Source of the DNA: Escherichia phage vB_EQ1
Length of the DNA stretch: 64,000 bases
Strand: one strand, 5' to 3'
Sequence record: PQ516281
The notes under the pieces are model-generated. The model saw only the letters and a program-made list of their open reading frames with translations, did not search any database and had not been told where the DNA came from. Below are positions 61,441-62,541 of this stretch, in pieces. The translations under genes were made by a program, and so were the position numbers. Every line of letters starts with the position of its first letter. Positions within the stretch are counted from its first letter, which is position 1.

Positions 61441-62541
61441 TTACGCTGTGAAGATTTTATCCCACATCGCAACAACTGCATCTCGGTTATACTTCTTCCA
61501 TACTGCTTCAGCACGTTTAACTCTAGCTTCGTATGTGTCAGTGAATTCTAATACAGCTTTTGTGTAAAGCGCAACTACTTCTTTCTTAGGAGTAGAGGAA
61601 TCAATTTCTACACGCACAGTATCTGGGTCGTATTCGAATGTCGCATGAGGATAATCCTTAAAAACTAACTGGATTACAGGGACACCTTTAGAGATGGCTT
61701 CAATAGAACTATTCTCTACCGTACCTGTGTCAGGACACGTATTAATAAGTGCTTTAGCTGTTTTAAGACGTTCCATAATTTCACTGTGTGGAGCATCAAT
61801 AATAACAGGATATTTAGCTGGTGGTGCCCATTTACTAGGACAATAACCAATACCATTTTCGCCTAGTGCTTTAATTGCTTCAAGAGCAACATCAGTACGA
61901 CGCATTTTAGTGTCATAACGTTGTGCACTAATAATCAGATCAGTCGCCGGAAGAACTTCAGGTTTCTCATTCAAACAAATAACCGGATAATCTTCGGCTT
62001 CAAACAACGGATTTGCTCGCCAATAATCATAATCAATTTTGTCAGTCAGACCTGAAGTCATATAACAATATTTGCGTTCAAATTCACGGAAGGCTTTAGT
62101 GGGAGCATAACTCTTACCACCATTCTTATGAATTTGAATAGTCTGGTCCCAAATTTGAACAATACCACGAGATACCGGTTCAAATGGTGTTGCCATAAAA
62201 TTCTTATGAACTTTAGAGAGACCTGCGTCTTTAATTGCCTGAACGGTTAGTTTAGTCGGTTCCATAGTAACAACAAAATCGTATTCATGGATGCCGGCTA
62301 GTTCAACAATCTTACGAGCCATAGTATAACTCATACCTAGACTGAATTTTGTCAGATGACCAACAGGATGGTGTGTAACTTTCCAGTCACCAAACGTGTC
62401 ATTATCAAAGCCGATATAATCAATATCAGCACCAATAGAAACTAAATATTTCAACACATTTAAATGTACTGCTTCAAGGCCACCTTGTACACGGTCAGGA
62501 TTAAATGGGACTGCGCGAGATGGGATAAACATAACTTTCAT
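61441..62541 (-). CDS. GT-B fold glycosyltransferase (GT4-like), candidate DNA sugar transferase
   Basis: 366 aa; C-terminal donor-binding signature GTVENSSIEAISKGVPVI (E-x-EA-x-G-PV motif class); lies between gene 39 and rIIA.1, where T4 has gene 60/mobA. Confidence 0.65.
   Translation of the reverse strand: MKVMFIPSRAVPFNPDRVQGGLEAVHLNVLKYLVSIGADIDYIGFDNDTFGDWKVTHHPVGHLTKFSLGMSYTMARKIVELAGIHEYDFVVTMEPTKLTVQAIKDAGLSKVHKNFMATPFEPVSRGIVQIWDQTIQIHKNGGKSYAPTKAFREFERKYCYMTSGLTDKIDYDYWRANPLFEAEDYPVICLNEKPEVLPATDLIISAQRYDTKMRRTDVALEAIKALGENGIGYCPSKWAPPAKYPVIIDAPHSEIMERLKTAKALINTCPDTGTVENSSIEAISKGVPVIQLVFKDYPHATFEYDPDTVRVEIDSSTPKKEVVALYTKAVLEFTDTYEARVKRAEAVWKKYNRDAVVAMWDKIFTA

Follow-up and report, generated by a model that had tools for sequence, protein, structure and literature searches.

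Arabinose in the DNA of phage RB69 was reported by Thomas et al. 2018 (PMC6024577), who nominated ORF003c as an arabinosyltransferase on the basis of an HMM-HMM comparison. Lee et al. 2026 (PMC13326640) describe a pathway in which cytosine is wholly replaced by 5-hydroxycytosine, with RB69 gp48, a flavin-dependent thymidylate-synthase homolog, making 5hodCMP. RB69 DNA contains both mono- and di-arabinosylated 5-hydroxy-dC, and the disaccharide was identified by NMR as beta-D-Araf-(1->3)-alpha-D-Araf-O5 (Lee et al. 2026, PMC13326640). In the same study, gp46:47 is proposed as the first transferase, while RB69 gp3 is labelled 'beta-arabinosyltransferase 2', likewise as a proposed role. In vitro, DLP3 gp76 and gp77 jointly, though not singly, used UDP-Araf to extend RB69 DNA by a third Araf, and DLP3 gp79, the supposed primary transferase, did not act on 5hoC DNA (Lee et al. 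2026, PMC13326640).

The same mono:di mixture, in a ratio of 1:4, is reported for the DNA of Mosigvirus NP in the Durham-collection paper. Citing papers describe Bas46 and Bas47 as doubly and the Serratia/Prodigiosinella phage LC53 as singly arabinosylated, and state that deletion of 'the arabinosyltransferase Aat' sensitised Bas46 to a defence system. The gene examined here is therefore a known feature, for which a UDP-bound crystal structure, the product chemistry and a proposed role as second arabinosyltransferase are all published. Since these main facts are in print, the DNA that we analysed, a 64,000-nt window of Escherichia phage vB_EQ1 (PQ516281), contributes a further member that is almost identical.

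The rIIA.1-gene 39 locus

The first-pass annotation had placed a 366-aa open reading frame between gene 39 and rIIA.1, which matches our delineation of the locus exactly, with the gene on the minus strand:

58922-61135: rIIA, an ORF downstream after rIIA.1 and followed by rIIB
61148..61348, minus strand: rIIA.1 (PF24210 T4_RIIA1, E 2e-30), the downstream neighbour of the glycosyltransferase gene
61441..62541, minus strand: glycosyltransferase gene, a single ORF of 366 aa plus stop with an ATG start
62542..62585, minus strand: upstream intergenic region, a 44-nt spacer from the gene 39 stop to the glycosyltransferase ATG
62584..64000, minus strand, open at the window end: 3' part of gene 39, the topoisomerase II large subunit of the fused 39+60 type (Pfam DNA_gyraseB, Toprim, TOPRIM_C)

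Gene 39 is thus the upstream neighbour on the minus strand. Its PhAPEC2 ortholog is one gene of 605 aa, and the subunit is single and fused in the Mosigvirus lineage. A hairpin followed by a T-run at 62568-62585 overlaps the gene 39 stop, and an AAGG lies 7 nt ahead of the glycosyltransferase ATG. At the same place as this hairpin, the PhAPEC2 record carries a terminator predicted by its annotators. In our own scan for terminators upstream of the glycosyltransferase gene, 1 was found versus 1.1 expected by chance, and consensus scans for promoters and terminators around the gene were at chance level.

The gene had also been said to occupy the slot of T4 gene 60/mobA, and this holds. What lies between rIIA.1 and gene 39 varies, with the Mosigvirus phages carrying the glycosyltransferase there and other phages as follows, in coordinates of the respective locus extracts:

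T4, 2200-5328: genes 60, 60.1 and mobA
PEi20, 2222-4893: two small ORFs
EcS1, 2180-4805: two small ORFs
SdyM_006, 2046-4306: essentially empty

Because the content of this slot varies among T4-like lineages, the comparison suggests that the glycosyltransferase gene was acquired by, or relocated to, this position in Mosigvirus.

The gene is real and constrained. By megablast, 155 phage records have at least 90% nucleotide identity to it, all of them Escherichia/Shigella Mosigvirus, and the best match, OQ031495.1, is 100% identical across the gene. When compared to five orthologs, the substitutions fall overwhelmingly at third codon positions, with synonymous versus non-synonymous codons numbering 19 versus 2 for PhAPEC2, 41 versus 5 for Bas47 and 51 versus 6 for a metagenomic copy. 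Homologs that match over the full length (35-43% identity) have 36 invariant columns in common.

The whole window aligns to OQ031495.1 at 99.1-100%. One stretch of about 1.3 kb (window 47654-48923) is unaligned; it lies inside a 1177-aa ORF (46128-49661, plus strand) that stands downstream of the proximal tail-fibre genes, and it has the appearance of a local exchange within what is probably a receptor-binding (distal tail fibre) gene. Shorter breaks in the alignment are present at about 34057-34355 and 36739-36932.

Fold and conserved motifs

The window protein adopts a GT-B fold whose donor-binding C-terminal domain is GT4-like. Its AlphaFold model, built from an alignment of 12 homologs (pLDDT 90.5, pTM 0.87; an earlier alignment of 6 sequences gave a poor model with pLDDT 58.9), displays two Rossmann-like domains and an inter-domain cleft, and the structures closest to it are those of retaining GT4/GT5 enzymes. 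A search of PDB sequences returns 9iqz and 9ir0 (E 6e-251, 98.9% identity, four substitutions), released 2025-07-16 and titled as 'phage HY126 glycosyltransferase' and as the same protein with UDP. As the title of 9ir0 gives the UDP-bound state of the 98.9% identical HY126 protein, UDP binding is documented crystallographically for a protein that is 99% identical to that of the window. In the HY126 genome, the ortholog lies between rIIA.1 and the topoisomerase gene and has the four substitutions of the PDB entry; with the same locus and the same substitutions, the crystallised protein is the ortholog of the window gene and not the other transferase of that phage. The GenBank record of HY126 (PP658200.1, extract 3244-4344) reads LG at residues 288-289, where the PDB entry, the window and all homologs have P288-V289; this departure from a nearly invariant pair probably arose through faulty sequencing or assembly.

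Profile searches are largely silent by comparison. In PHROG, the sole match is phrog_8302, of 'unknown function' (E 1e-222 over residues 1-366). The window protein has no Pfam match at E<=1 to 10 and no NCBIfam match at E<=10, and a Pfam scan of the 12 homologs yields solely PF20706 GT4-conflict (E 0.0028) in 2/12. CAZy GT4 and the Pfam Glycos_transf_1 and Glyco_trans_4 HMMs likewise do not match the window protein. As a profile of the family recovers the HY126 entry alone from the PDB sequences, and Pfam and NCBIfam are silent, GT4 placement is impossible by sequence methods.

Within the protein, three conserved segments stand out, with invariance judged on family alignments that include 12 sequences down to 35% identity:

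61672..61725, minus strand: residues 273-290, GTVENSSIEAISKGVPVI, the donor-binding helix motif and the best-conserved part of the family
61900..61920, minus strand: residues 208-214 (R-Y-D-T-K-M-R), at the start of the C-terminal domain
62473..62484, minus strand: residues 20-23 (GGLE), a glycine-rich loop that follows the first strand (E2-6) of the N-terminal Rossmann domain in the model

In the donor-binding motif, G273, T274, E276, S279, E281, A282 and G286 are invariant and P288 and V289 nearly so, and GTVE[NH]xSxEA is the most conserved peptide pattern in a scan of related loci. G20 and G21 of the glycine-rich loop, which we take to resemble the N-terminal GG loop of GT4 enzymes, are invariant or nearly so. 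At the start of the C-terminal domain, Q207, R208, D210 and R214 are invariant in 12/12 sequences, and we infer that R208 and R214 may form a phosphate-binding pair equivalent to the R-x5-K of GT4 enzymes such as PimA. With respect to the EX7E motif, E281 in IEAISKGVPVI fits the second Glu, whereas the residue eight positions upstream is G273 and the invariant E276 is spaced differently.

By HMM, the protein falls outside formal GT4 membership, and its EX7E motif is apparently half present. The bacterial GT-B enzymes of GT4 type (sucrose-phosphate synthase 6KIH, BshA, PimA and WaaG) are 10-14% identical to the window protein and differ from it in the first EX7E Glu, which appears to be replaced by G273, with E276 separated from E281 by four residues, and in the acceptor, which here would be a sugar borne on DNA. 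The first-pass annotation had called the product a GT-B enzyme with a GT4-like donor signature and had proposed structure prediction and GT family profile searches as checks: the fold was borne out by the model, as was the conservation of residues 273-290, while the profile searches gave no Pfam or NCBIfam match and the GT4 assignment by HMM did not stand.

Probable place of the enzyme in phage DNA arabinosylation

By full-length homology, the window protein belongs to the family of RB69 gp3 and DLP3 gp76-77. A comparison with the glycosyltransferases of arabinosylating phages had been recommended, and it identifies the window protein as the ortholog of RB69 ORF003c/gp3. This protein, the HY126 glycosyltransferase (PHROG 8302) and the window protein are the same protein, with 98-99% identity, equal length and the same rIIA.1/gene 39 position in the same genus; the four to six substitutions that separate them include none in family-invariant columns except the LG at 288-289 of the HY126 GenBank record. 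DLP3 gp77 and gp76 (beta-arabinosyltransferases 2/3) are 42.8% and 40.3% identical to the window protein along their entire length and share its invariant motifs, and they use UDP-Araf on arabinosylated 5hoC DNA, such that transfer of Araf to DNA is an established activity of paralogs at 40-43% identity. In DLP3, the two paralogs belong to the modification cluster itself, where their neighbours are the kinase-like gp78, the supposed primary transferase gp79 and the thymidylate-synthase homolog gp80, and addition of the third sugar requires both, whereas in the window lineage there is one copy, about 22 kb from the modification cluster in Mosigvirus, and the chain ends at two.

The transferase of the core cluster (RB69 gp46:47, DLP3 gp79) acts in the same pathway and, in published models (Lee et al. 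2026, PMC13326640), falls into the same general GT-B class. It differs in having about 300 aa rather than 366, in occurring in all cluster lineages, including those without the gp3 family, and in its proposed role of adding the first, alpha-linked sugar. The window protein has no detectable sequence similarity to DLP3 gp79, to RB69 gp46/gp47 or to T4 agt and bgt. The last of these results agrees with the first-pass annotation, which saw no convincing resemblance to the T4 enzymes: homology was found neither to the T4 alpha-glucosyltransferase (GT72, PF11440, PDB 1Y6F/1XV5) nor to the T4 beta-glucosyltransferase (GT63, PF09198).

The gp45-gp55 cluster lies outside the 64-kb window, within which tblastn finds none of it. 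The near-identical genome OQ031495.1 contains the complete RB69 gp45-gp55 cluster at 90-100% amino acid identity (all but gp49 at least 98%), including an intact 299-aa primary transferase and a 5hodCMP synthase that is 100% identical to RB69 gp48. 5hodCMP synthase, UDP-Araf supply and primary arabinosyltransferase are therefore all encoded in OQ031495.1. Virion DNA with glucosyl-hmC alone, attributable to agt or bgt homologs elsewhere in the genome, had been named as an observation that would count against the proposal, and OQ031495.1 has no such homologs (best E 0.04 and 4.7).

Encoded at 28380-28922 (minus strand) of the window is an Alc homolog (PF17527, E 7e-43). T4 Alc blocks transcription of cytosine-containing DNA. 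As Alc is kept in a phage with arabinosylated 5-hydroxycytosine and not glucosyl-hmC, its discrimination has to operate with another base.

The gp3 family is found by tblastn in 211/50,697 phage records, comprising 155 Mosigvirus (95-100% identity, 1 copy), 55 Acinetobacter T4-like phages (about 42%, 2 copies) and one Tegunavirus. Among 1.84 billion representative proteins, 11 sequences are recovered by an exhaustive profile search, with 8 below E 1e-30, while a word-indexed protein search gives 5 clusters of relatives and a scan of viral contigs 7 loci; the contexts of the metagenomic homologs are too short or uninformative. Edwardsiella PEi20, Escherichia EcS1 and Shigella SdyM_006 carry the core cluster in full, placed between uvsX and gene 43. 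Despite the core cluster, the gp3 family is absent by tblastn from these three phages and from Serratia LC53, which has the nucleotidyltransferase/kinase gene and no gp3-family match.

Across the few and phylogenetically clustered lineages with known products, the number of gp3-family copies follows the number of arabinoses: 0 in the mono-arabinosylated LC53, 1 in the di-arabinosylated RB69, NP and Bas46/47, and 2 in the tri-arabinosylated DLP3. Thanatos, which arabinosylates once (Lee et al. 2026, PMC13326640), has 0 copies by tblastn. The single Tegunavirus record (Yersinia phage group) has its homolog at <60% identity, and by the copy-number rule this phage is predicted to carry a two-sugar chain. 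One further relative, the 379-aa P0009 (Logan SRR34261890, contig positions 10001-11140; 37% identical to the window protein), has structural and packaging genes (gp13-like, DUF4815, terminase) as neighbours on a contig that looks non-T4-like, and no pentose or thymidylate-synthase genes are found within the 20 kb available around it.

Because the gene is limited to phages with two or three arabinoses, which encode an unrelated transferase in the core cluster, it most likely adds the second sugar, and the agreement between copy number and chain length, taken with the biochemistry of the DLP3 enzymes, makes second-step chain extension the best reading. The window gene is the known Mosigvirus glycosyltransferase, which most likely extends the chain by a second D-arabinofuranose. 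The soluble GT-B enzyme would bind a UDP-sugar and act after replication on DNA in which every cytosine is a 5-hydroxycytosine bearing one alpha-D-arabinofuranose, a sugar for which the unrelated RB69 gp46:47-type transferase of the core cluster would be responsible. A second D-Araf would then be moved from UDP-Araf onto O3 of the first sugar, and the product, beta-D-Araf-(1->3)-alpha-D-Araf-5-hydroxy-dC, would be the major nucleoside of Mosigvirus DNA. That the window protein itself carries out this step, with this regio- and stereochemistry, is what we infer from its relatives. Outside He et al. 2026 and Mahler et al. 2025, where the proof may lie, the literature yielded no direct assay of the window protein or of RB69 gp3. 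As the DLP3 enzymes are inactive alone, members of the family may need a partner.

A role as the primary transferase, placing the first arabinose on the base, is improbable. It would accord with the nomination of ORF003c as the candidate for the final step by Thomas et al. 2018 (PMC6024577), at a time when this was the sole glycosyltransferase recognised in the RB69 genome, with the BASEL annotation 'putative hmC-arabinosyltransferase', and with the inactivity of DLP3 gp79 on 5hoC DNA in vitro. However, the second, unrelated transferase (gp46:47, which a sequencing error divides in two in RB69) adjoins the 5hodCMP synthase in every lineage examined, the mono-arabinosylating phages LC53 and Thanatos are without any gp3-family gene, and gp3-family members use DNA that is already arabinosylated as their acceptor. 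The expectation that this gene sets the sugar modification of the phage is thus correct as to the pathway, although the primary step probably belongs to the core-cluster transferase of the gp46:47 type.

More remote still is an acceptor other than DNA, such as a phage or host small molecule, a lipid or a protein, in which case the tie to DNA modification would be loose. All close structural neighbours do act on small molecules, lipids or glycans, the Mosigvirus gene is about 22 kb away from the DNA-modification cluster, and the 37% identical P0009 is surrounded by structural genes in a phage that is not T4-like, its 20-kb context being free of pentose genes. Yet both homologs of the Acinetobacter phages are embedded in the arabinosylation cluster and modify DNA in vitro, and the family is confined to arabinosylation-cluster phages, with copies that match the length of the sugar chain. 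Glycosylation of hydroxymethylcytosine with glucose or another sugar in T-even style, the chemistry assumed in the first-pass annotation, has next to no likelihood: the lineage makes 5-hydroxycytosine with a synthase that is 100% identical to RB69 gp48 and 25% identical to T4 gp42 (the gp48-type thymidylate-synthase homolog of OQ031495.1), and in RB69 and NP, nucleoside MS/NMR shows arabinose attached to 5hoC and detects no hmC derivatives. The enzyme was thus rightly recognised as part of DNA hypermodification, of a different base and with D-arabinofuranose as the sugar.

The anomeric configuration counts against second-step chain extension and raises a mechanistic question. Both transferases of the phage resemble retaining GT4-type enzymes, yet the linkages are opposite, with the second sugar beta and the first alpha. 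With one UDP-D-Araf donor for both, either one of the enzymes must invert or the family resemblance misleads, and one of the two phage arabinosyltransferases must be mechanistically atypical.

DAHP synthase co-occurrence and the phage sugar coat

Elsewhere in the window lies a DAHP synthase gene, whose connection with the glycosyltransferase had been raised as speculation:

23419-24000, minus strand: dCMP deaminase, with the DAHP synthase gene directly upstream
24000-24992, minus strand: DAHP synthase of the AroFGH type (TIGR00034 E 5e-128; PF00793 E 1e-74)

KDO8P synthase, a user of arabinose-5-P, was considered as an identity for 24000-24992 and is ruled out by the TIGR00034 aroFGH match (E 5e-128), which is far above cut-off. 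DAHP synthase occurs in 212 phage records, compared to 368 for the gp52:53-type gene, with equal counts among phages of Klebsiella (25/25), Proteus (7/7) and 'Serratia sp. ATCC 39006' (6/6) hosts. The pentose cluster is present in 5/5 inspected lineages with DAHP synthase: Mosigvirus, Kanagawavirus, Kagamiyamavirus, Bragavirus and, in the form of at least the gp52:53-type gene, Marfavirus. In Klebsiella phage Marfa, DAHP synthase likewise adjoins cd. The converse fails, as most arabinosylating Acinetobacter phages and the JS98-like phages are without DAHP synthase. Shared ancestry could explain this co-occurrence.

A functional coupling to DNA arabinosylation, with DAHP synthase serving as a sink for erythrose-4-phosphate, is doubtful. 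By consuming E4P, the enzyme would pull transketolase (F6P + GAP -> E4P + Xu5P) towards pentose phosphates, and this pull would feed Ru5P -> Ara5P -> UDP-Araf; since many arabinosylating phages are without DAHP synthase, it would be a booster and not a requirement. What survives of the suggested connection is therefore co-occurrence with the pentose cluster at the genome level, while DAHP synthase stands outside the published pathway.

GenBank records label the orthologs of the window gene as 'DNA alpha-glucosyltransferase', 'GDP-mannose-dependent alpha-(1-2)-phosphatidylinositol mannosyltransferase', 'ATP-binding protein', 'putative hmC-arabinosyltransferase' and 'hypothetical protein'. None of these labels fits the current chemistry, and 'DNA alpha-glucosyltransferase', 'PimA-like mannosyltransferase' and 'ATP-binding protein' are wrong or imprecise. 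The value of the present comparison is mainly corrective in this respect, in that the modified base is 5-hydroxycytosine and not hmC, and the enzyme is most probably an accessory chain extender and not the primary modifier. The larger sugar coat that it would produce may broaden protection from DNA-targeting host defences. Which restriction, CRISPR and glycosylase defences a phage escapes is determined by the sugar coat of its cytosines, as is its exposure to type IV (GmrSD/BrxU-like) systems, and the coat also affects sequencing and the engineering of therapeutic phages.
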